A stretch of DNA of 63,607 bases, taken from assembly GCF_025526975.1 (NCBI RefSeq), contig NW_026515688.1, positions 496,001-559,607 of the forward strand, read 5' to 3'. Shown one piece after another: positions 4,187-27,286 of this stretch; position 1 is the stretch's first letter, and every line of letters starts with the position of its first letter. The notes beneath the pieces were generated by a model. The model saw only the letters and a list, made by a program, of their open reading frames with translations. It was not told the origin of the DNA and made no database searches. This stretch comes from Fimicolochytrium jonesii. Its lineage: Eukaryota. Both the position numbers and the translations under genes were made by a program.

Positions 4187-4303
4187 TTAGGGTTAGGGTT
4201 AGGGTTAGAGTCCTGGTTCAATTGAGAATACAATGTTTACAAAGTAGGGTTAGGGTTAGGGTTAGGGTTAGGGTTAGGGTTAGGATTAGGGTTAGGGTTA
4301 GGG
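4187..4303 (+). repeat. Interstitial telomeric (TTAGGG)n tracts
   Basis: Three TTAGGG plus TTAGAG (4187-4210), then TAGGG, 5x TTAGGG, TTAGGA and 3x TTAGGG (4245-4303). Each tract is followed by a TTCAATT(G/T)AGAATACA..GTTTACA motif (4217-4241 and 4310-4334). Confidence 0.95.
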
Positions 4304-4594
4304 TCTCTATTCAATTTAGAATACAGCGTTTACAGCATCACAAATCTGCCACATAGTAAGAATCTTGCGGCGGCAAGCTATCGTTTCAGAATAGCTTCAT
4401 TAATCGTTTCATACAAATCAATGTGGCTCATCCGTGGGTGACTCAGCGGTGCCGTATTAAATATGGTGGCCGCAATAGCGCGGGATATGTCGCGCTATTG
4501 CCCAGCCGCCCTTTCCCCCCTACACCCTCTTCGCGCTAACCGCCTTTGCCGTCGGATCCCTCTCCCTCTTCTTTCCTCGACGGACGGCGAGCTC

Positions 4595-7500
4595 TCAACC
4601 ATCACCGCCGACCGCTTTGACCGACGGCTCCCTGCTGCCAGCGCTCCCTGCCACGGCTTCTGCGGTTTTCGACTCTGCCGCGCGGGTGGCTGCACTTGTG
4701 GCCGCCGGTGGTTTCCGTCCACCGGCCACCCAGCTGGCCACATCGCACAGAGGGGCCGCCCAGCCTTCCGTGCCCTGTCAGCAGGGCGGCGGGGGGGGGG
4801 GGGGGTGGGGGTTAGCATTTGCCATCCATCAGCAACAGGCGCGCGCGGTCTTACCCCTTGATCCTTGCCCACGGCCGTAATGTTCGAGGCTTTCCCGTGC
4901 AGAATGGTCCACATGATAGTCCAGCGCGCAACGTGGACCTGACTGGTGGAATACGTGGCCGGGAGCACAAGCGCCCCCTTCGCATTGCGCTCCCCCACCG
5001 TGCCGTGAATGATCCAGCTGGCCATGCAGCACGAGAGAACCCCGCAGGAGTCCATGTCCTGCTGGCGGGGGTGCGACACATAGATGGGGGGGACGTGGGC
5101 CCACCTGCGGGCATAAACCCACAGTGGATCATGTACCGCACCCTGTCCACGATGCGCCAGCGAATGTCCTCGGTCCATACGGCCGCGTTCATTTTCCCCG
5201 ATCGCTTGCCGAACATGGAGTCGTAAAAGTAATGCCGGCCATCCGTCCGGTCATACCAGTACGAGGCGAAATGGTTGCGGTTTCTGTGGAGGATGAAGTG
5301 GGCAACGTCGTGTTCTGCTGGCGACTGTGGAGGGGGGTTGTTAGCGCGGGATGTGCGGCAGTGCCTCGAGAATGTACAGCACTTACCGGGTGAATGTATG
5401 CGGGAGCCAAACACCCCTCACCGATCAGCAGCGCCTCGCCGGCCGTCCACATGCGTTGTAGGGGTTGCCCTGTCTCCCTCCGGGTCACGGCCGCCGACTT
5501 TGCCAGGGTGTCGACGTACGTGTATATCATGGTCAGCGACAGCCAATTGCTTGCGCTCTTCGGCCTGCCGCCCATGTTCCCCACTAGGCCGGCCTTGTCG
5601 GGCGCGCCCATCCACCCCCTCCCCGCCTCCTTCAGGTTTGGGTAGAGGCCAAGCACGGTCGGCGGCAGAGTGAAGGGGCCGACGTCGCCATACTGGGCCA
5701 GGCGTGCGCACTCGTCCATCACAGCCTGTGGCGGCATCCAGAAGCCGGGCATCTCGCCGTGGCCGGTGGCGCGCGCATAGGGCACCACTGAGGCAGGCTT
5801 CGGCGGGCCCTCCCCCCTCTCCACCTCCGCTCATGACTTTGAGACACCCTTTGCATTGAATCCGATGCTTGTCAGCGGCGCCACCTGCCAGTGCTTGCGC
5901 GCCTCAGTGTTATTGAGCAAGTACTCCTCCCCTTTGGCCAGTTTCGGTGCGGCCAGCTTGGGTTTGGGTGCCCGTTGTTTTGCCTCTTGTCTCCCCTGCG
6001 CAGATACCCCGCGTTAGCGCAGCACCGCGGCAACGTCCACTCACCCAACTCATACCGGCTTTGCCGCTTCCTGCATGCGCGTGTAAGTGTCGTCTGCGAC
6101 GCCCCTGTAGCCTTCCCATATGCGGTCCGCCGCCTTCCCCAAAGTTGCCACGTTTTGCCTGATGGCCTTCTTGCACCCTTTCCCGCCATTGGCCTCTGAG
6201 CGCGCGAGCTTTCTGAATAGGTGCATGGTTTCGTCGAGCAGCTTTGAGGCCTCGGGGCCGCCTGTGGCTTCGTACCTCCCCTTGAACCCTCCGTGATAGT
6301 CCGCCATTTGGCGGGCCTGGGTCAGGCGAAGAGATAGCGTGGCCATATCCTCCGCCCAATTCCTATCCCTGTCCGATCCCTCCTCGTCTGACCCCTCCTC
6401 CTCCGATCCCTCCTCCTCCGCGGCTGCAGTGGGCTTGCCCCTCTTCTCGGGGGGCGCTTGCTCCGGCTCCCCCTCCTCTGCGCGCTTGCGCTTCCCAGCC
6501 TCAGCCTCCCCCGGCGCCTTCTCCGCCGCCTTCTCCGCCGTCTTCTCTGCCACCTCCTCCCCCACCCCCTCCGCCGCCTCCATGGCCACCTTCCCCGATG
6601 CCCCCTCGCCGACCCCGCTGACTGGGGAGCCAGAAAGCGCCTCGACCTGAGCAGCCGTGGGCCCTGCCCCTCCCAGCCGTTCTTGGTCACGCCGGCCACA
6701 GATGCCAGCGGGTCCGCGGGCCTTTCTTCCGCGAAAAGGTCGTCGATGCTCACGTCCTCGCGCCGACGTGCTGAATGCAGTCCCAGTACAGCGAGAAGCT
6801 TGCCACTTCCTCCTTGCTTGCCGTCTTGCCAAAGGTGCGGCCATACAGCGAGTACGGTGGCCAGCCCTTGACAAGGAGGGGGTTTGTCAGCGCGCGGATC
6901 TCCGGCCAAGGCGTGCGCCTGATGTCCCTGCCGGATGCCTTGTTGTACTTGTCCCAAAGTGCATCGCGGAGGCCCTCTCTGTTTTTCCAGATGGGCACGA
7001 TGGGCGCCAGGGGTTTCCCTGCACGGGGTGGGCGGAGCCTGAGACAGCTTGGTTACGAGCGCTAGCGCGGCGGGTGACGTTAACGCGGGTCACGCACCTT
7101 CTTTTTCATCCCCGTCTTTTTTAGCCCCGTGTTTTCTCTTCCCCCCGTTTTTCTCCCCCTCAACAAACAGGGAGCCTACGTAGGTGTCCAGAGCACGCCG
7201 GGCTGCGCGGGCGGTGTCGACGGGCTGCCCCATCAGGTCCCCCGCCACGATCCGCACTGTGTCGTCGCTGTCTGTGACCAGGTAGCTGCGGCCTGCGCTC
7301 CGAGAGGATGCAACGATGAGTCGGAGGGGCTCGCCAGCCAGCTTGCAGATCTCGACCAAGCTCTCGGCGGCTGTGATGAGCGCCCCCTCGGCGACGACAA
7401 CGTCCGCGATGGTCGCCGATATGCTCCCCACGTTGTCGCGGAGCGCCCTCCTGTCGTCGGGGTCCAGCTGGTCGACCAACGCCAGCGCGAGGCTACGTTG

Positions 7501-8007
7501 TGCGCTGTGGCCAAGCAAGTTGGCGGTCGCGGGCCTAGCCTCCGCACCGGCAGCCTCCCTCATCCGCCCCATGTCAACGTTGGCTGTTTTCCAAGCTTCC
7601 GCCATGCTCAATGACTTGGACCAATCAGCGGGGTCTCCCGCCCGTAGAAGCTGCAGCATTCGGTTGACCATTCTTGTCTTCTCTTGCTGAAGGATCCGCT
7701 TGGCGGACTTTCCACTGCGCTTCTTGGGCGCGGCGCTCGCCTCCTCCTCCCCAGCCTCCTCCTCAGCGCGCCCCTCCTCCTCAGCGCGCCCCTCCTCCTC
7801 AGCGCGCCCATCCTCCTCCGCGTCGCCCTCCTCCTCCCCGTCGCCCTCCTCCCCCCCTTCCTGCTCGTGCTCGCTCCCCTCGTCGCCGAAGGCAAGTAGC
7901 ACGCTGGTGGCCATGTCCGCCAGCGCCTCCTCGCTCGCGACGTCAGAGTCGGAGCCATCAGCGGCCTTGTCAGCGGCCTCCGCCACCTTTGACCGGCGGG
8001 CCGGCAT
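4595..8007 (-). pseudogene. Long multi-exon gene with C-terminal Ulp1/C48 (SUMO-protease-like) cysteine peptidase domain, disrupted
   Basis: Frame-consistent introns at 7019-7097, 5996-6055, 5325-5386 and 4775-4854. Motifs in order: WLSLTMIYTY (cf. WLNDEIINFY), NHFASYWY..YFYDSM (His, Asp) and PRQQDMDSCGV (Gln, Cys). Disruptions: in-frame TGA at 5831-5833, a 1-nt shift at the G7 run 5086-5092, and further shifts around 6.6-6.8 kb. Confidence 0.7.
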
Positions 8008-8338: not shown

Positions 8339-8663
8339 ATCTCCGTCTTCCAAGAGCCGGCCGCACTTAGCTGCTTACCCAATCCGCTGGAGGTGGCGCA
8401 GTCGCGGCGCAGCTGTGGCTTGCCGGTCACATGTCCACACTGCTGCTGTGATGATCGCCGCATCTCCAAGACCACACTGCCACACGAAACATCAAGCGCT
8501 TGCAGCGGACAACAGCCCCCCGGCCAGCGCCTACCTCCTTCCAGCTCAAGCCCGGCAACTCACACAGAGCACGCTCCGAAAATGCTCAGCGCTGACAAGG
8601 TGAGTGGCCGCTGTGTAGCCGTGGGCGTCTCTGCCGGGTGTTGACCGCCTGGGCTCGCAGCCC

Positions 8664-10348
8664 ATGCTGAGCACGACCGCCGCTTGCGGGAGGTCGAACG
8701 GCATGGGGCGCGCTGTCTGGGCGTGTTTGCCATGCGCCGATCCCGCAGCCCATGTTGAGCACGACCACCGCTTGCGGGAGGTCGACCGGCATGGGGTGCG
8801 CTGTCTGGGCATGCTGCTGTGCGCTGATCTCGAGCATGACCGCCGCTTGCGGGGGGTCGACCGGTATGGGATGCGCTGCCTGGGCATGCTGCTGTGCGCT
8901 GATCTCGAGCACGACCGCCGCTTGTTGGAGGTCAACTGGTATGGGATGCGCTGCCTGGGCATGCTGCTGTGCCGCGTCGGTGATTACGATTGCGCGGGCT
9001 GGGTCGCTAACACCTTCCCCCTCCCCTTCCCCTCCACCGCGCCGCAGGCCACGCCCCCCGTCGCACCCACCACGGTCGAGGCTCTTCTGATGGGCATGGG
9101 CGAGGGCCGCGCCACAGCTACCTTCGGCAACATGGTGGCCTTTTTGTATCCGCTGCTGGTAGACGCCGGCCTTGCCGCCTGGGACGCTAGCCTAGAAGAC
9201 AAGGGCAAGGCCATTGGCCTTTTTTCAAAGAAGATCAAGCAAGACAACCCCACCCTTTGGGGCTGGTGGATCAATAGGCCAACGCGGTCCCGTCACCACA
9301 AGAAGCGCGCCAAGCACCATATTGGGCTCCAGTCCGACATCATCGCCGCGATCACCGATGGCGGTCTTACCGCGGCCGACTTCTTGGTCGACCCCCGGCC
9401 CTCCGCCAGCCGCCCGGCTGTTCACATCGTGGTGCCAACGCCCGCCTCGTGCGATGGCTGGGAGGGCAAGATGGTCTATGCGGGGTTTGGGAAGAGGCCG
9501 GCGAAGGCGAGGGGCCTGGATGGGCTTGAGCAAATTGAACCCCGGGGGGGGGCCGACATCTACATCCGCGACAAGCACGGCGCCCTTGTGGCCACAATCT
9601 TGTACAATAGCGTGGGTCGTCGCGAACATGACCTGCGGCTGGGGCTCATTGTCGAGTCCTGTGGATCCCGGCCGGCTCTGGTTCGATGGAAGGCTTCAAG
9701 GGGCACAATGCACGCCACGGGGCTTCGTCGTGGCGTCAAGCACTCGGGATATGCCAGGGGGACGTCGCACTATTCAATGAAAGGAGGGGCTGACATTTCG
9801 GCAAAGAAGTTTCTCGTTGCCACGGAAAAGGCGTTCACCAAGCGACTGCTGCGGGAGCTCACCAAACGCAACCCCACCGCGGCGGCCTACCTGATGATGT
9901 CCATGCCAGAGGTGTACGGGCCACACTCCGATGAGTTCACCCTGCTGTTCGCCACGCGACCAACTATCAAGTGGTCGTTCACTCCGACCCGTCGGACGAC
10001 GGCGTCGCCAGCGAGCTGAACCCGCACACAGGCCGCGCCATATGGAAGCTGACCCCCAAGGAGGAGCTTCCGGAGGAGCTTCAGGCCCGCAAGCTATGCA
10101 CGCAATGGGTGGCAGGCTACGCCGTCGCTCCGCCAACCATCGTCGGCGAGTGGATATTTGCGCTGCCAGAGCAAGGCTTCTACTTGGTGCTGCAGCCCGA
10201 CTGCATATGGACGTGGATGTCTGACAAGCTCCACGGAACGGCGGAGCTTGACACGTCCGGCGTCAGTGGCCACACGGCTGTTGTGACGCTGCCCCTGGCG
10301 ACGGCTGCGGCCATCCGGAAATACGGCCTCCCAGATGAAGACGAATAG
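8664..10348 (+). pseudogene. TET/JBP-like 2OG-Fe(II) dioxygenase (fungal Tet-like family), one frameshift
   Basis: ORF 8664..10019 has GTMHATGLR (GxMxxxGxR) at ~9702 and FTLLFATR. After a shift at ~9957-9961 the frame reads NYQVVVHSDPSDD (HxD at 9980), WIFALP, and WMSDKLHGT (distal His at 10232). The true start may be ATG 9090. Confidence 0.65.
8665..8970 (+). repeat. Tandem ~75-bp repeat (4 copies)
   Basis: Units GAGCA(C/T)GACC(G/A)CCGCTTG.. start at 8669, 8757, 8832 and 8907 (periods 88, 75, 75). Confidence 0.9.
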
Positions 10349-10380: not shown

Positions 10381-10455
10381 GCGTAGATTTTGTAGACCGT
10401 GCCTGCGTAGATTTTGTAGACCTTGCCTGCCCTGCCTGCGTAGATTTTGTAGACC
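10381..10455 (+). repeat. Three copies of GCGTAGATTTTGTAGACC
   Basis: Identical 18-mers at 10381, 10405 and 10438, just after the TET-like stop codon. Confidence 0.9.
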
Positions 10456-10676
10456 TTGCCTGTGCAGAAAGGCTCCATCAATAGGCGAGTTTGGCGCGCA
10501 AGAGTCCGATGTGGCGAGGGGCTCGCTCCAGTAGCGCGGGCAAACGTGATGGACCGGACCTCGCGGTGAAGCTTTGGCGGCTGGAGGCCTGAGCTGCCCG
10601 TCCAGACCTCGCCCAGGGTATCTCCGTCCTGCGGGCGCCGCGATGACACGCACACACGTTAGCGCTGGACTCGTGA

Positions 10677-10799
10677 CGTTAGCGCGGGGTGGGTGCTAAC
10701 GCCTGTAAAGCCACGTTAGCGCGGGGTGGGTGCTAACGCCTGTGAAGCCACGTTAGCGCGGGGTGGGTGCTAACGCCTGTGAAGCCACGTTAGCGCGGG
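10677..10799 (+). repeat. 37-bp tandem repeat (3.3 copies), each unit a hairpin
   Basis: CGTTAGCGCGGGGTGGGTGCTAACGCCTGT(A/G)AAGCCA at 10677, 10714 and 10751, partial at 10788. CGTTAGC/GCTAACG is an inverted repeat within each unit. Confidence 0.95.
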
Positions 10800-10856
10800 C
10801 GTGGGTGTCGCTCACCGTGCCCCGGGGCTCCGCGTCTGCAGACTTCTACCTTCTAC

Positions 10857-13800
10857 ATGGTCGTGAGCAGACAATTCCAGACCGCCGAGACCGAGCTCAT
10901 TCTTACAATTGCGCGCAATTGCGCACACTTCCACCCTCGCACAGTCAAGGCAAACCCCCAGCCAGTCTCTGAAAGCCTTCAGCGCTTCGCAGGTAAGCGG
11001 GAGTCCTGGATCCTCCTCGAGAGCAGGCCCCTTGCTCAGCCCCCTTGATCTCATCACCTGCCTGCACAGCACGGCACAGCACGGCCATCATGTCATCACA
11101 CCAGGCGCTCCAGGGGCACCGGTGGGGTGGCTTCATTATGGGAGCAACCACACCACGGCGGAAGAGGAGGAAGGTTGCTCCGGTTACCCCGCGGCTGCCC
11201 ATAAATCCGCCAACCGCTGTGCAGACACCAATGCAACCCCTGCAATTCAATTTCCCACCTTCTGTCCAGCGCCACTTGCCCCAAGCAATTGCAGACATGG
11301 TTGGCGAGAGCTCCGGCGATGAAGACGGGCAACAGCACCAGCAGCAGCGAGGGCTTTCACCCGTGAACAGGGGTCTGCAGTGCCCACCGAACCTCCCCGC
11401 GCCCATCCCTTTCCGTTTTCCCAGCACACCGGGTGGGTCCCTGGTGCTTGAACCCCCGCCACCACCACCAGTTCAACGACCCCGCCCGCAAACACATGCC
11501 GGCACCAAGGTTTCCCTTCACCAAGTCATCCATAATCAGAATCAAGCTCAAAGGGAGCGCCTGACAACGTTCATCGGCAATGTTCACGTCCTTGCGCGCC
11601 ACACCACCTTCTTTCTCAAGTACTACCTTGGTGAGTTTTTGAGGCACACTGTATATTTCCCATAATATTTCCCATAACAATGTCCTGACTACTACGTCTG
11701 CCCACCGCAGCTGATCATCCTCTACGCGATTTCCCGGACATCACCAACAAGCACATCAGTGTGATGTTTGAGCTGCTCAACAATCCAGGCTACAACGGCA
11801 ATCCAGTCATCGCGCAAGAGGTGCGTCCACGGGTTCAAGAGTACTGTGATGTTCACGGATTCGCCCCCATCCGCATGCGATATTGCCAACAGACCGCAGC
11901 GTACACGGCTATGAGCATCTTCACAAACCTCAAAGTTAACGTACAAGAGCATTTCATGCAAATGTTTCTGCGCTACGTCAATGAAAGGCTTGGTTTGAAG
12001 CAAGTGGAGCGGCATCTCCGGAGAGCGCAGCAGCGACACTATTATCGTTGTGTCCGTCAATGTACAAAGTACGCGACGTTTGAAGAGTACCCAACCGAAG
12101 AGGAGCTTGCCCGCCTCACACGACTTGAGCGGACCATCCTCGACTAGTTATGGGCTCTGTTTCCTCCCCAGGATGAGCCGCTTGCGTACAGCCTTGCGGT
12201 GGACGCAATGCCATATTTAGGTGAGCTATGTCCCGTACATTTACCCCCCCCCCCCCCCCCCGCGGCTTCCTCTTTTGTCTAATCATGGTCCACACCTGCC
12301 TCGCCTCATCACAGGTGCCTATTGTGAGCTCTCACGCCTCTATGAGCGCTGTGGAACGCGGCTGTTTTCCGCTATCCCGCTGCGCAAATCTCGAATCCAG
12401 TCATCTGTTCGGATTGACACGCGGATCCTAGCCATTCATATCCTGGGTTTGAGCCAACGTCGCATGGGGAAATTCACCGATGAACGGAAGCGGGAGCTGT
12501 GGGGGCAGTTTCTCAACGTGAATGTAAGTCTCTATCCCTCTGCGCTTATTTCACTCACCTCACCTCGCCGAATGACGGATTGCAGGACAAGGTCTTCAAG
12601 GCTCGAACGAAGCTTGGTCTCAAATTTGATGGGTCAATCAGCACAAACGGGTATTCCGCTACCATCCACTTCAAGAAGCCAGGGCTCAAGTATGGGCATC
12701 GGGCCCGGAAGCGCAGCAAGGCCCAAATGCGGGAAGAAGTCAAGCAGCTGTATTTTGAGCACCACATCGCTGAACTACGGGAGGCTCTAAACATCGTCAG
12801 CATTGATCCGGGCAAGCGTGACCTCTTGTTCTGTTGAGACATCAAGAAGGAGCGGCCATTTAGGTACCTTTCAGTTGATTACTACTGCCTCGCTGTCCCC
12901 GCTGTCCCTCCCCGCTGTCGCCGCTGTCGCCGCTGTCCCCGCTGTCCCCGCTGTCCCCGCCGTCGCTGCTGTCGCTTCTGTTGGTTACGCCATCAATTTT
13001 ATGCTATCAACTTCCGCCATCGCTGATCTCAACGCTTCCTGTGCTGAGCACGACCGCCGCTTGCGGGAGGTCGACCGGCATGGGATGTGTTGTCGCTTCG
13101 CCATCGTAGTCGTGAAGAGCGAATCGCGAGCCCGGCTCCTACTCCAAGCTGGACTCAAGCGATCGCGGAAGTTGGCGGAACGTTCAATGAGATCAGAATG
13201 TGGACGATGCATGGCGACTGCGACTGCGACGGCGACTGAATTCGATCTGCAGTACCTCCGCTATCCCCGCTGTCTCCGCTGTCCCCGCTGTTCCTCCCGG
13301 CTGTTGCCGCTATCCCCGCTGTTGCCGCTGTCCCCGCTGTTGCCGCTGTCCCTGCTGTCGCCGCTATCCCGATCAACGCCCTCCTCAACCCTGTCCCAGT
13401 CCCCATCCCCACCATCCCCCCCCGTCACCATCCCCACCATCCCCTTTGTTCGACATTCCGTTGCCGCGTTCTCACAATGCACCACCCCATACCAGATACA
13501 CATCCAATCAACGGGCAGTCGAGACAAAGTCTCGGTACTTTTGAAGAGACATGACAGAGCGAAAGATCAATGCCGGCATCGCTGAGATGGAATCACATAT
13601 TCCGTCGCACAAGAGCATGAACATCAAGGCGTTCTCAGCGTTCATTGTGGATCACGTACATGCGGGTATGATGTATCATGCATTGTCTTCAAATTTGGTA
13701 ACACGTGGGCTGACATCCATCCATATCCCAGATCCCGCCCTGGATGAGTTTTACCAGGATGAGATTCACGTAGCTCGCAGATTCAAGGCGTTCTCACTGC

Positions 13801-14362
13801 GGCAAAAGTCTGAGAGCAAGCTCATCAAGAACATGCGACACCTGTATGGAAAGCATTTTTCGGTCATCATGGGTGATTGGAGCGACGCTGGAAAAACCAT
13901 GCGCTTTCAGGAGTCATCAAAGACCGAGGGGTGAGTGACCATCATTGTTTTTTATGTATTTTAATATGCTAACTCATCATCATGGAAATCAGATTCCGCA
14001 CACTCTTTGCAAGAAACAGCATTCCATGCTACTTGCTAGATGAGTATCGAACGTCTTCCGTGTGCCCAGACTGCCACGGGCGTGTGAAGAAAAACATCCG
14101 ATGCCGGCTGTCACCTCGGCCGTGGCAAGCTCGAAAGGGAAGAATGGAATTCGTCCATGGATTGGTGGGTTGCCCCAACCCCGAATGTATCAACCAAGAC
14201 TGGATGCCATTTGAGATTCCTGGAAGAAGACAACCACTACGACTACGGATGAAAGTGCACAATCGGGACGTCCTAAGCACCAAGAATTTCCTCTCGATTG
14301 TGCGCTCGGTGGTGTTTGGCATTGATGGCCGCAGACCAGACGCATTCTCCCGTAACCGGTAG
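10857..14362 (+). pseudogene. Fanzor1 (eukaryotic TnpB/IscB-OMEGA-type RuvC RNA-guided endonuclease), intron-rich, 3 premature stops
   Basis: Frame-consistent GT-AG introns: (10993-11069), 11631-11710, 12221-12314, 12524-12585, 12864-13495, 13666-13731, 13931-13992. Exons from ATG 11090 sum to 2277 nt (759 codons). Motifs: FDGSISTNGYS, RuvC-I IVSIDPG, FRYTSNQR, VIMGDWS, LDEYRTSSVCPDC, GCPNPEC, RuvC-III HNRDVLSTKN. Stops at 12145, 12835 and 13542. Confidence 0.9.
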
Positions 14363-14383
14363 TCTAGATTTCACCCCATCCCA

Positions 14384-14450
14384 TTTTCCGTGGTGGTTAT
14401 CTGCCATCCACATCATTGTACCTCTGCCTGAGGCGTCGCCGATGATGGCA
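14384..14450 (+). ncRNA. Candidate Fanzor omegaRNA scaffold
   Basis: Lies ~20 nt after the Fanzor stop. Can fold into GTGGTGG/CCATCCAC and ATCATTG/CGATGAT stems, the latter enclosing CCTC/GAGG. Position matches known Fanzor omegaRNA loci. Not proven. Confidence 0.35.
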
Positions 14451-14684
14451 ACTTGTAAATCTACTATGAGAGAGTTCGTGCACAAGCATTGGTGAGGTGA
14501 TTGCGGTGGGGCGTGTTCGGGCGGGTACATGCGTTTGGATACTCCAGCCAAATACGCCATAGGCTATTGAGCTGTCAAGAGGTGGTGGACCTGTGCAGGG
14601 CAATGGTGGGTAGTCGCATCTGCAGTATGGCCGTATATGAGAAGACCGTGGGAATGAAGGAGTTGTTGAAAGTGACGCCGATCC

Positions 14685-22601: not shown

Positions 22602-24010
22602 GCGGTTGTTGGCAATGCTTCTGCGCGATTGAACCACATAAAAAGGAATCCTGTGGCTGCGAAAGACCTCCCAAAATACCTTACGTATAGCTTCACAACT
22701 TTCTTTGACCTTCTCGTATGGATACCCTTTCCGATGTTCTTGGACAAGATTGCGTTACAAGTACCAGCGTGAATTGGAAGAGAATCGATAGAGTCCCTTG
22801 TTTCTGGCAAGCTGGTGTGCGGTGACATGTGCTAAAAAACGCGTGGGGCAACCTTCAAGGTCATATCCTTCCTGTCAACGCTGTTTAGACCACAACTGTC
22901 ATTTTCTGGAAAATATTTACACAGGGTATACAGTATGTGTCTATATGTCTGCGACCTCACGTGACTTCCAGGCCGTTTACACTCTGATGCGGTTCATTCG
23001 CTTTGATGGAGGCAACATAGCTTTGATGTGGATGGGGACGTCAGCATCATCATCAGCCGTCTTGTTGAGCATCGACTTCAAAAGGCCAAGAACACTTTTT
23101 GGAGTTTTCCTCGGAAAGTCTCGCGACAGGAAGACCTCAGGCCGACCATTGCTGCGCCACCCATTTCTGGACGTTTGTCGCGACGGCGGCGGCGCCGTTT
23201 TTGGCCTTTTTCCTTACCCACCATTGCCAACATCATTGCCATCGCTTCGACAGACATACACATACAGAACCTCTGCCGGCGATATTCGGGCTCAGGACCT
23301 CCTAGGCTTGAGGTTCCCAGTTAACAACACTCAATTTGAATCACAGGCTGCTGAGAAATATGGATTTTAGTGATGAAGGTAAGCAGTAGAGCATCGCCGG
23401 CATTGCGTGCCTGATTGCGGTGGACAAGGGTGTCGTACGGCTCCAGGAGTTCACCACAGTGTTCTGATATGCATGCTTTCGACCTTTTTATATTTGCCCA
23501 GGACAAAACGGCGTGCAACAGGCCCTTGGGCAGCCGGAGCGGGACGAAGGGGGAGAAAGTAGGGAGCCGAGGCCAGGGGCAGCGGTGAGGCCGGGGGCAG
23601 TGCAACAGGACCTTGGGCAGCCGGAGCGGGACGAAGGGGGAGAAAGTGAGAAGCCGAGGCCGGGGGCAGCGGAGAGGCCGGGGGCAGCGGTGAGGCTGGA
23701 GGCAGCGGTGAGGCCGGGGGCAGCGGTGAGGCCGGGGGCAGTGAGGGTTTTGAAGCAAGGGAAGCAGTTTCGATACAGCGCGGGTTGTATTGACTGCCGG
23801 GTGAAGAGCTCTTCTAGATTCTATCGTGCGCCGTGGCCGGTTTTGGCTTGGGCAGAGGCAATGGGGAGGGATTTCTTCTTCGGCAAGGGAGCGACGCAGG
23901 AAATTGTTTGTGGGGCATGTTGGACGGCTTGGAGGCAAGTGGGGGTGTTTCAACATGAGGAGGGCCTGGGGGTGAACAAAGGCATACAGACAGATGTTAT
24001 CAACAACGTC

Positions 24011-24548
24011 TGTTATGGACGACGCGCCCATACCATAAGCTTACCTACTGACAGCCGCCAATGTCAACCGCCAAATGTCAAACGCCAATGTCAATGTCAA
24101 TGTCAGTGTCAATGTCAGTGTCAATGTCAATGTCAATGCCACTCCCCCTCTCTCCTCTCATTTCGCCAATCCTCTTGCAATATTGCCACTCCTCCTCTCT
24201 CCTCTCATTTCGCCAATCCTCCCTCGGCTTCTCCACACCCCCCACTGCTTCCCCATAGCCAGCAGCTGTAGCAATGCTCTCTACGCTCGCCACGCACGCT
24301 CTAGGAGCATAGCTGGCGCCCCCCAGTCCCCTCTTGTTGTTGTTGTTCTCTGATCTGCTGGGTTGCCTATCTATAAATAGCCAGCCTCTCTTCGTCCATT
24401 CCCTTCCTCCCCAGCAGATCAACACCAGTTCTTCTCATCTCCTGTTCTAGTCCTTGTTTCTTGTTTCGCCAATACAATCTCTTGTTGCCTATCACTCTCG
24501 CCTTGTCTTCTCTACTTCGCTTCCGCCTCAGTCGTCGAGATCATAACA
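24011..24548 (+). mobile_element. Solo LTR (copy 1), no matching TSD
   Basis: TGTTATG...CATAACA termini, TATAAATAG box at ~24373, similar to the LTR at 24704. Flanks are ACGTC/GTGCT. Confidence 0.7.
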
Positions 24549-24703
24549 GTGCTATCCCGTAATAAGAAGTTTGAACAAGCTTCATCCTGGGCAACGAGCA
24601 GTGTACTCACCTTGCATCTTGGTGCTCGCCAAATCTTTCAGCACAGGCCTGCTATGTAGAGGAGGGTGCGCTTGCCGAGCAGAATCTGATTCACTTAACC
24701 AGG

Positions 24704-25233
24704 TGTTATGGACGACGCGTCCATACCATGCGCTTACCTCATGACAGCATCCCAACAGTCAGTCAATGTCAATTCCCTGTCAAAACCTGACATCTGCCAA
24801 ACCTCGCAGCCGCACGCAGCCGCGCTACCCCACACCTGCCACTGCCTTCATTTCTCCACGCAGCCGCACGTAGCCACACCTCCCAACACTCGGCGCTTAC
24901 AAACCCTTCTTCATACTTCCCCACGTACCCGCCCACAGCCTCAGCGTAGCCACCCCATCCCCAGTCTTCTGTTTCTATGCTTCCCCACCCTTGGCGCTTC
25001 TCTTGGCTTCCCTCTCATTCCGTACCCTTCTGCTTCCCCACGCTTCCCCAGCCTTCCCAGAAAAGCATAAATAGCCGCCTCCCCTGAGCTCCCCACTTCC
25101 TGATCCCCCAGCAGATCAACACCAGTTCTTCCTAGTCTTGTTCTAGTTCTTGGTTCGGTCTGAATACCATTACCTGTCAACAACCTGCACCACAAGTCGC
25201 CTCTATTTCCATCGGCTCCGCCCAGTCATAACA
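24704..25233 (+). mobile_element. Solo LTR (copy 2) with 5-bp TSD
   Basis: TGTTATG...CATAACA termini flanked by CCAGG (24699-24703) and CCAGG (25234-25238); ATAAATAG box at ~25068. Confidence 0.85.
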
Positions 25234-27286
25234 CCAGGGAGAGACTTCTGCTCTATCTTCGTTGAGTCCCAGGCCCAGTGCGTCGCGTCGGTTACTCTTC
25301 CCGCCATCAGCATGTGTCTGCTTGTCTGCCAGCATGGGCAGCCCCCTTGCTCTTCATCACAAACAATCATCGTCTCCTATTCGCCAACGACATGGTCTCT
25401 GCCACCTCCACATGGAGAGATCCTTTCAAAGCGGCTTCCCGCCTGCCAATTGATTGCCGTTTCTGTGGCCGTACAGGAATATGCTTTGTAAACTCTATTG
25501 AAAAGGGGGACTGGAAATACAACTGACATTATGATTTGGCTGTATCAGTTGGCCTCAAGCATGTCATGCCAGTGCCTGTCTTGACTTTCGTCCTCTGTCT
25601 GCCTTCCAATCATTCCATGAAGGCGTGAACAGGCCCTTGTAACGATGCTGATTGAACATATGCCAGCGGTCTCGAAGCAAACCATCATCGTTGATGGAGG
25701 TGTGTAACAGGTTATGCCTGTTAGATATTGCAGTACAGTCCCAATGGCCTGAACCGCGATGCTGCAAACTGTCAGTCGCTGTCAAACTCCCGTCAGTTTG
25801 AACAGAGTTCCTTCTAGCCTCCCATACGTTTATAGTCCGCAGCTGATCGCTAGCGGGCACGAGGAGCATGGATCCCAATCATGCTTACGTTTGCCGTTAC
25901 GTCAGCCAACTCCGGTCTCTGAAGATTCGGCGGATGATATCTTTGGTGTTTACCAACCCGCAACTCCTCTTCACCTTCGCTCGATCCACAAACACCAATC
26001 CGCAACTGCTCTTCACCTTCGCTCGATCCACTCGATACAAGTCGCTCGCATATATTCTTGCCCGCAAATATGTCGTTCCCTCAAATTCAATACGATCCGG
26101 CAAGCGGTCATAGACATATACTTCTCAATCCGGGCGAAACGGTTCTCCTGGTGCCAACATCAGTTCTGGCTGCGGGCGGCGCTTGGACTATGCACAACGC
26201 GAATCCAGCGACTACTTATCCATTGACTCCAAGTCTCGTTAAACTCTGCCCGCGACTACCAAGCAAGCAGACGAGAGATGCTCGCCATTGCGAGATTGAC
26301 CCCGACGTCTTGACCTCGGCCTTGACACATGCCGAGGAGAATGGCTGCGGTGATAGCTGCCAACGGGGGAAGCACAAAGTATTTAGGAGACTGATGCCGT
26401 GGTCGACGCTGTCAATTCAATGGCAGCTCGCGATGGACACTGACTTAATCACGTGAGGTCGCAGACATATAGACACATACTGTACATAGATAGGTACTAC
26501 GTATACATACATATGTACATGGAGGATGCTTACACATATAGCACACAAGATAGCAGACGCAGAAACTTGTATGGTATGTACTGTATATGGATGATAGCCT
26601 GCCATATCCCAAGTCGTCGCTCTCGGCAAATAGCTGGATGTCTAGATTTACTGGCAGCCGGAAAACCACCGAAAGACGAAAAATGAGTCTCTCGACAGTC
26701 ACCACTCATCGTTCATCAGGCAGCAGCGCACAAATTTGGTCGTGCGTTGTAGGTGTGCCAAGAGTAGCCACGGCGTACAAACGCACGACTGTGTGATTGC
26801 GCGGAGTCAGGGCTGCGCATCCGCCGTGCTGATCCACGTAGCCAGCGCAGTTTGAATAGGTATACGAGGGAGCCCTGGCGGGGCATTCTTTATACCTTCA
26901 CGCACAATTCACTGCAAGCCCTTCATCAACCGTCATACTTGTGCGCGGGGTCGGGCCATCGACAAAAACACACAATCATCCTGTGAGATGTCGTCGGCTT
27001 CCGTTCTACCAGCGGGAAGTGACATGGATCATGCACAACCATGAACAGAGTATATATCGACCTGCATGCTTAAACCAACTTACAGTATGATATCGTTCGC
27101 CAGAGGTGGGAGATTCCTAGCCCGCCACCAGTCGTCCAAGTTGGAACGTCCAAGTCTTCAAGGCCCCGATAGTTGAAGTCCGAACCACCATCGCCGAGTG
27201 ATATTCAAAGCAGGAAGGAACAGTCGAACGCTTGTTTTTGCCATTTCTGCCGTCCATCCCAAGTGACACGGGAACGATTGACGAGA

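Follow-up and report, generated by a model that had tools for sequence, protein, structure and literature searches.

In the 63,607 nucleotides of Fimicolochytrium jonesii DNA analysed here (the window), positions 11090 to 14362 hold a decayed Fanzor1 copy, which is a real but ordinary intron-containing pseudogene. This stop-broken copy with six predicted introns, from the SpuFz1 clade, is probably cargo of a mobile DNA element of about 10 kb, together with a gene for a putative 2-oxoglutarate dioxygenase. The repeated pairing of Fanzor with this upstream neighbour, called gene B here, is new, and the original prediction had missed gene B.

The Fanzor gene lies on the forward strand, as do gene B, the proposed seventh intron, the candidate ωRNA scaffold, the GTAGATTT copies and the TTAGGG arrays described below. 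From the ATG at 11090, the predicted removal of six introns (11631-11710, 12221-12314, 12524-12585, 12864-13495, 13666-13731 and 13931-13992) leaves 2277 nt or 759 codons, stop counted, which reproduces the proposed gene model. All six introns have the form GT..CAG, and each has a branch-like CTRAY or CTCAY 22-36 nt before the acceptor. Exon 1 (11090-11630) contains the start methionine, which is shared by 10 paralog models, the basic N-terminal patch PRRKRRK (11153), a Pro-rich extension of about 130 residues and the start of the WED and REC regions. Exon 2 (11711-12220), exon 3 (12315-12523) and exon 4 (12586-12863) follow, with REC in exon 2 and the RuvC-I Asp (SIDPG, 12799) in exon 4. After exon 5 (13496-13665) and exon 6 (13732-13930), exon 7 (13993-14362) contributes the RuvC-II Glu (LDEYRTS, 14036), a CxxC...CxxxxC zinc finger (CPDC at 14063, CPNPEC at 14171), the RuvC-III Asp (NRD, 14261) and the stop. 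The basic patch, the three acidic residues and the zinc finger are thus all present, as originally described. Owing to in-frame stops at 12145 (TAG, exon 2), 12835 (TGA, exon 4) and 13542 (TGA, exon 5), the window copy has no open reading frame for a Fanzor1 protein.

A comparison with SpuFz1, which the original prediction had proposed, bears out the Fanzor1 identity. When exons 2-7 were queried one by one against the PDB, with X at the stop codons, SpuFz1 (8gkh) was the top match for each of them, in collinear order and with joints free of gaps and overlaps (exon 2, E 5e-22, chain residues 501-636; exon 3, 2e-11, 639-700; exon 4, 9e-16, 709-789; exon 5, 2e-8, 796-846; exon 6, 2e-17, 857-916; exon 7, 4e-26, 919-1027). 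By hand count from the alignments, the 2/3, 5/6 and 6/7 joints are exactly in register with SpuFz1, and the 4/5 joint is one residue off. Because SpuFz1 is a single ORF, these collinear matches back the junctions more strongly than any other evidence. The intron at 13666-13731 (intron 6) has 66 nt, is in frame and stop-free, so that only the homolog register identifies it as an intron. The homology extends across the REC, WED, RuvC and zinc-finger regions, and DPG, DE..C (Glu 653, Cys 660) and NRD align, again by hand count, to SpuFz1 D383, E541 and D606. Fanzors are described as having a rearranged RuvC site, a D-E-D triad with the Glu just ahead of the zinc finger (PMC13565253), and the window Fanzor has this arrangement.

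The Pfam version used here misses the F. jonesii Fanzor at threshold: its exons and the full models gave only a sub-threshold Cas12f1-like_TNB match. A quick tree of 38 hand-chosen rows, which left out most matches of a wider homolog search, placed the F. jonesii Fanzor as sister to Gaertneriomyces (98), in a clade that also holds S. punctatus and metagenomic types (99). Scanning viral contigs with the Fanzor alignment yielded 106 candidate stretches, none of which was confirmed. One metagenomic contig carries a Fanzor1 fragment (L024:2863-3336) among dense ORFs that are thioredoxin-, nuclease- and AAA-ATPase-like by eye, and is possibly a giant-virus contig.

The last exon matched 13 gene models, all from Fimicolochytrium jonesii and one of them 100% identical, and cluster look-ups brought the total to 50 Fanzor models at 46 loci, a eukaryotic, multi-copy and transposon-like distribution. 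Support for the junctions in paralogs, on which the predicted splicing had been made to depend, was found in most spanning models. In the alignment of 52 rows (three unnamed short ones did not align), same-length junctions were present, for the six introns in order, in 5/6, 7/7, 16/17, 25/25, 36/38 and 43/43 spanning models, the last two counts including a model that is probably from the window locus itself; these models, all predicted automatically and belonging to a single family, are not independent. The triad is retained in 25/27 (D), 46/46 (E) and 41/41 (D) covering rows, and the four zinc-finger cysteines in nearly all covering models. One annotated model, P0042 (761 aa, KAI8821362), is unbroken, has both triad and zinc finger, and is identical to the window model at 673 of 755 residues (89%). 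The suggestion that reverting three stop codons would give a testable nuclease is not supported: the window copy differs from most of the family at 34 positions, stops included, and an assay would also require a defined guide RNA. With P0042 complete, no repair of the window copy is needed. Further chytrid Fanzor1 proteins are found in the P0066 cluster of Phlyctochytrium arcticum, which comprises six models, several of 660 aa, that are labelled hypothetical.

A seventh intron had been proposed at 10993-11069, together with a coding exon from an ATG at 10857. The arithmetic is right, as removal of this segment as well gives 811 codons, and its GTAAGC..CAG borders make it a plausible intron, but the coding exon is unsupported. 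All 10 models that include the Fanzor N-terminus begin at the methionine corresponding to 11090 and none upstream, which argues against the exon and places the intron probably in the 5' UTR. Further upstream, 3.5 copies of a 37-nt repeat (10676-10807) offer branch-point-like sequences in either orientation (GTTAGC, GCTAAC), and a possible acceptor at 10841 may mark another 5' UTR intron.

The intron at 12864-13495 (intron 5) has 632 nt and holds an insert between two CCCGCTGT-type arrays. The insert contains part of gene B's 75-nt repeat, and the 3' part of the intron is retained in the paralog model P0046. Apparently, about 390 nt (12864-13255) are extra; they lie between repeated GTACCT and include a copy of the gene B repeat, which suggests that they were copied in from a template elsewhere in the element.

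The original prediction had taken the many introns as a sign of long residence in the eukaryote, a conclusion that the comparative data do not support. The window gene has 2.6 introns per kb, whereas the published account of intron and NLS acquisition by Fanzors reports up to about 9.6 per kb (PMC10530073); the accessible text of bioRxiv 2023.08.09.552727 adds nothing further on Fanzor introns. SpuFz1, which comes from the same order, Spizellomycetales, is encoded by a single ORF (PMC10432273, PMC3627910). The window introns come after residues 178, 353, 423, 515, 572 and 638. A metagenome scan with Fanzor gave eight loci, of which L020 and L021 are one and the same, and L024, L026 and L027 are too partial for all six intron positions to be scored. 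Three independent metagenomic relatives span all six positions without an insert. By eye, each has two introns elsewhere, one at about residue 273 of P0042 in all three and another at about residue 697 (L020/L021, L023) or 647 (L022) in the same numbering. Since SpuFz1 is intronless and none of the six introns is present in three metagenomic relatives, they were probably gained in the F. jonesii lineage after its split from SpuFz1. Independent gain is the simplest reading, with loss in several other lineages as the alternative. The F. jonesii Fanzor lets intron gain within a mobile gene be dated against the intronless SpuFz1. In L020, a two-intron Fanzor1 with open frames (L020:7131-9150) is followed by a TTTTTCCG..CCGG hairpin region.

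The Fanzor copies probably decay via methyl-CpG deamination. At 533 well-covered sites of the Fanzor family, amino-acid changes explicable by CpG-type substitution were seen in 61/132 opportunities, compared to 28/302 for the remaining C>T changes (P 4e-17 by Fisher's test), an about five-fold difference obtained without a host-gene control; T>C accounted for 44/519 and transversions for 92/2128. Two of the three stops in the window are TGA codons where paralogs often have Arg. According to a review, early-diverging fungi have little 5mC overall (PMC13297926). The CpG-biased decay supplies an indirect rationale for a demethylase as passenger of the element.

Gene B (8582-10348) is a multi-copy gene with an HxD..H..R motif, TET/JBP-like by eye. 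The window copy has a frameshift near 9955, its HxD is out of frame, and it has lost the motif Arg; the HxD/E..H facial triad and the distal Arg are kept in most paralogs. KAI8826972 is an intact F. jonesii gene B model. They are also retained, as HxD, H and R, in a Powellomyces hirtus homolog that is 37% identical; KAI8913732 is an intact gene B from this species. P. hirtus has three near-identical homologs of 607 aa (P0213-P0215) at separate accession positions, which suggests that gene B is mobile in this species as well. By eye, gene B resembles a set of phage TET/JBP proteins around LPE, HG and R. By eye, its upstream GxM..GxR motif also resembles one of fungal TET/JBP proteins, and a distal Arg is a feature of TET/JBP enzymes.

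The statistical tests did not support this assignment. Pfam found no match of gene B to Tet_JBP (PF12851), a family that a control phage protein matched at 4e-6, and neither PHROGs nor PDB profiles gave support for TET/JBP. Alignment with hhalign to the phage TET/JBP set reached a probability of 0.3%, and in the targeted HMM test 58/500 and 176/500 shuffles scored equally well. No match was obtained by tblastn against phages, no relative in the metagenome scan, and no usable match of model P0017 in the Atlas. AlphaFold models from two runs had a pLDDT of 33, too low to be usable. Because all statistical tests failed, gene B is called a putative 2OG-Fe dioxygenase here, and no TET/JBP assignment is made. 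The uniformly negative family tests could also mean that gene B encodes something other than a dioxygenase, and that its adjacency to Fanzor reflects the clustering of repeats in transposon islands. We consider this quite improbable, since the motif residues persist at 37% identity, and since 7 of the 11 other gene B models lie one or two accession numbers from a Fanzor model, as read from GenBank accession order, not DNA. With about 2.4% expected per gene, this corresponds to a binomial P of about 1e-9, and to 2e-5 under a four-fold denser null. The other four gene B models have no Fanzor nearby. Seen from the Fanzor side, 8/46 loci have a gene B neighbour and 38/46 have no gene B model nearby among those seen; the gene B searches were length-limited, and the counts of 7/11 and 8/46 are therefore lower bounds.

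The region from about 5 to 11 kb of the window is GC-rich and contains two decayed genes. Besides gene B, there is gene A (4840-8007, reverse strand), which is multi-exon, has acidic low-complexity tracts and ends, by eye, in C-terminal Ulp1/C48-like motifs. The His-Asp-Gln-Cys motif set (HF..W..YYDS-like, Q..D..CG) is split by a frameshift and was judged by eye against the Ulp1/C48 consensus; gene A has no Pfam or PDB family match. Beside its end lies a pair of TTAGGG arrays whose flank is duplicated (4187-4334), a possible far end of the element; such interstitial arrays could also be a healed break. No Pfam transposase was recognised among the scanned ORFs of 4.2-14.5 kb, a search that intron-split or divergent genes may escape. 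Terminal repeats of the element did not exceed 8 nt, and neither a target duplication nor a Helitron CTRR-type end was seen, so that the combination of transposase and typical termini expected for a Helitron or DDE carrier was not found. The element sits in gene-rich DNA, as the 15-55 kb region holds ordinary host genes (RasGEF, DEAD helicase, ERCC4-like, CCCH zinc finger, glycosyltransferases, ALIX, Vps35 and JmjC). The window also contains, at 22929-26484, 3.5 kb between perfect 36-nt inverted repeats, with TA at both ends and internal tandem repeats. None of seven scanned ORFs there matches Pfam, and the segment is probably a separate non-autonomous DNA transposon.

Another reading treats the Fanzor as a separate small unit of the Spu-1 type (about 10383-14466). 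One copy would have landed just behind the gene B of a different transposon, and this composite would then have been amplified passively, with no functional partnership. Three tandem copies of GTAGATTT (10383-10447), the inverse of 14457-14464, were noticed post hoc. This 8-nt inverted pair flanks Fanzor alone, directly past the gene B stop, and the GTAGATTT copies may be a faint remnant of the left end of the Fanzor unit. Spu-1 is a stand-alone element of this kind (PMC10432273, PMC3627910), Kojima describes TET genes as passed passively between transposons (PMC12730594), and the 38 Fanzor loci without gene B neighbour also fit. However, the inverted match is 8 nt instead of the 30-33 nt in Spu-1, the gene B repeat piece in intron 5 points to exchange within one unit, and gene B and Fanzor would still have to move together. 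A nested insertion is thus a possible history of the locus, if not a probable one.

An intact F. jonesii Fanzor would be expected to cleave DNA in an RNA-guided, TAM-dependent manner. In SpuFz1 numbering, obtained by hand count from the alignments and the SpuFz1 sequence, D383, E541, D606, Q129, Q130, Y345, H21 and K25 are conserved. N133 is replaced by Ala in nearly all covering rows, and N385 by Gly. The REC loop at SpuFz1 R96 is five residues shorter, the Arg is absent, and in just 2/10 paralog rows does the shortened loop contain an Arg at another position. The TAM of the F. jonesii Fanzor is likely to be a different one, predicted to be other than CATA. An Arg matching SpuFz1 R96 is required for the activity of GtFz1 (PMC11423790). 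Because this basic residue is missing, the family, its complete copy included, may possibly be unable to cut. A nuclease-dead or weak Fanzor might bind RNA and DNA and, for example, target the copies of the element for demethylation or an activity on chromatin. Such a role would fit the family-wide loss of the basic residue, the N133 replacement, a long disordered N-terminal extension that is unique to the F. jonesii family among 16 aligned relatives, and the adjoining putative base-oxidising enzyme. Yet it appears unlikely, as the D/E/D triad and the four cysteines are retained in nearly all covering models, other relatives (P0066) also lack a basic residue in the REC loop, and Gly is found at the N385 position in the active PpFz1 as well (PMC11423790).

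A candidate ωRNA scaffold, which would include the right end of the element and be followed by the guide, was placed at 14383-14466. It starts with TTTTCCG, 21 nt past the Fanzor stop as in the SpuFz1 locus, and terminates in ACTA like the SpuFz1 scaffold; the placement is similar in L020, not in L024. As TTTTCCG occurs 14 times in the window, it is the position that carries weight. Its predicted folding does not stand out from that of shuffled sequences (z -0.6 to -1.5), and Rfam, run over 8-16 kb, gave one chance-level match and none at the candidate.

In the most probable reading, an intact Fanzor transcript would be spliced, and the protein would enter the nucleus via its basic patch and bind an RNA of about 80 nt from the right end of the element plus a flanking guide. 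As has been proposed for other OMEGA nucleases, it would then cut empty donor sites, and repair would restore the element. The element is probably non-autonomous, since no transposase was recognised, and gene B probably counters the methylation, a role also proposed in the case of fungal transposons with TET genes. A more specific version, in which the element couples an RNA-guided homing nuclease to a divergent TET/JBP-type demethylase and a SUMO-protease-like gene, the introns are recent, and the loss of the TAM-groove loop has led to a different or relaxed TAM, is tentative, and we regard it as rather doubtful. If true, one module would erase host silencing, and the other would restore the element after excision.

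Among known systems, SpuFz1 and its element Spu-1 from Spizellomyces punctatus are the closest. They share with the window Fanzor the triad, the zinc finger and the domain order, the TTTTCCG about 21 nt past the stop, the absence of a recognised transposase, and a high copy number (42 loci for Spu-1, about 46 in F. jonesii; PMC10432273, PMC3627910). In contrast to Spu-1, which has a single ORF for 633-638 aa in 2.1 kb and terminal inverted repeats of 30-33 nt, the window family has six introns and encodes 758-761 aa, and the window element has no long inverted repeats and no TA duplication. Unlike SpuFz1, the F. jonesii Fanzor also has the shortened REC loop, Ala for N133, Gly for N385 and gene B next to it. 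Chlamydomonas Fanzor1 (CRe-1/2/3, CrFNuc), like the window Fanzor, is multi-exon, with 5 or 10 exons supported by ESTs, and resides in a transposon (PMC3627910, PMC10530073). However, its carriers are green-alga Helitron2 elements, whereas no Helitron features were recognised in the window. DNA transposons with TET genes have been described for rusts, mushrooms and Pezizomycetes (PMC12730594). They resemble the window element in carrying an HxD..H gene, often beside other cargo, and their hosts show C-to-T decay of repeats, as here (PMC12730594). Unlike their TET genes, gene B passed no TET/JBP profile test, and a transposase was not found.

A pairing of Fanzor with a dioxygenase was not found in the literature searched, which left out Repbase and the majority of subscription papers. 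Neither Fanzor nor chytrid appears as a word in the main text of PMC12730594, and the accessible part of a 2026 review of Fanzor carriers names none with a dioxygenase (PMC13565253). Fimicolochytrium, Powellomyces and Gaertneriomyces are not named in the searchable supplements of PMC10432273 (all but file 2) and PMC10530073, in which tables may use accessions only. The F. jonesii family may therefore already be part of published Fanzor data sets.

Introns alone are ordinary for Fanzors. The interest of the family lies in a complete paralog with changed TAM contacts, in the apparently recent intron gain, and in the repeated pairing with a dioxygenase-like gene. P0042, being complete, close to SpuFz1 and altered in TAM-contact residues, is a ready candidate for an editor with a new TAM. 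If gene B oxidises bases, RNA-guided cutting and anti-silencing would be paired in one element, and the pairing would make the benefit of Fanzors to their host transposons testable.
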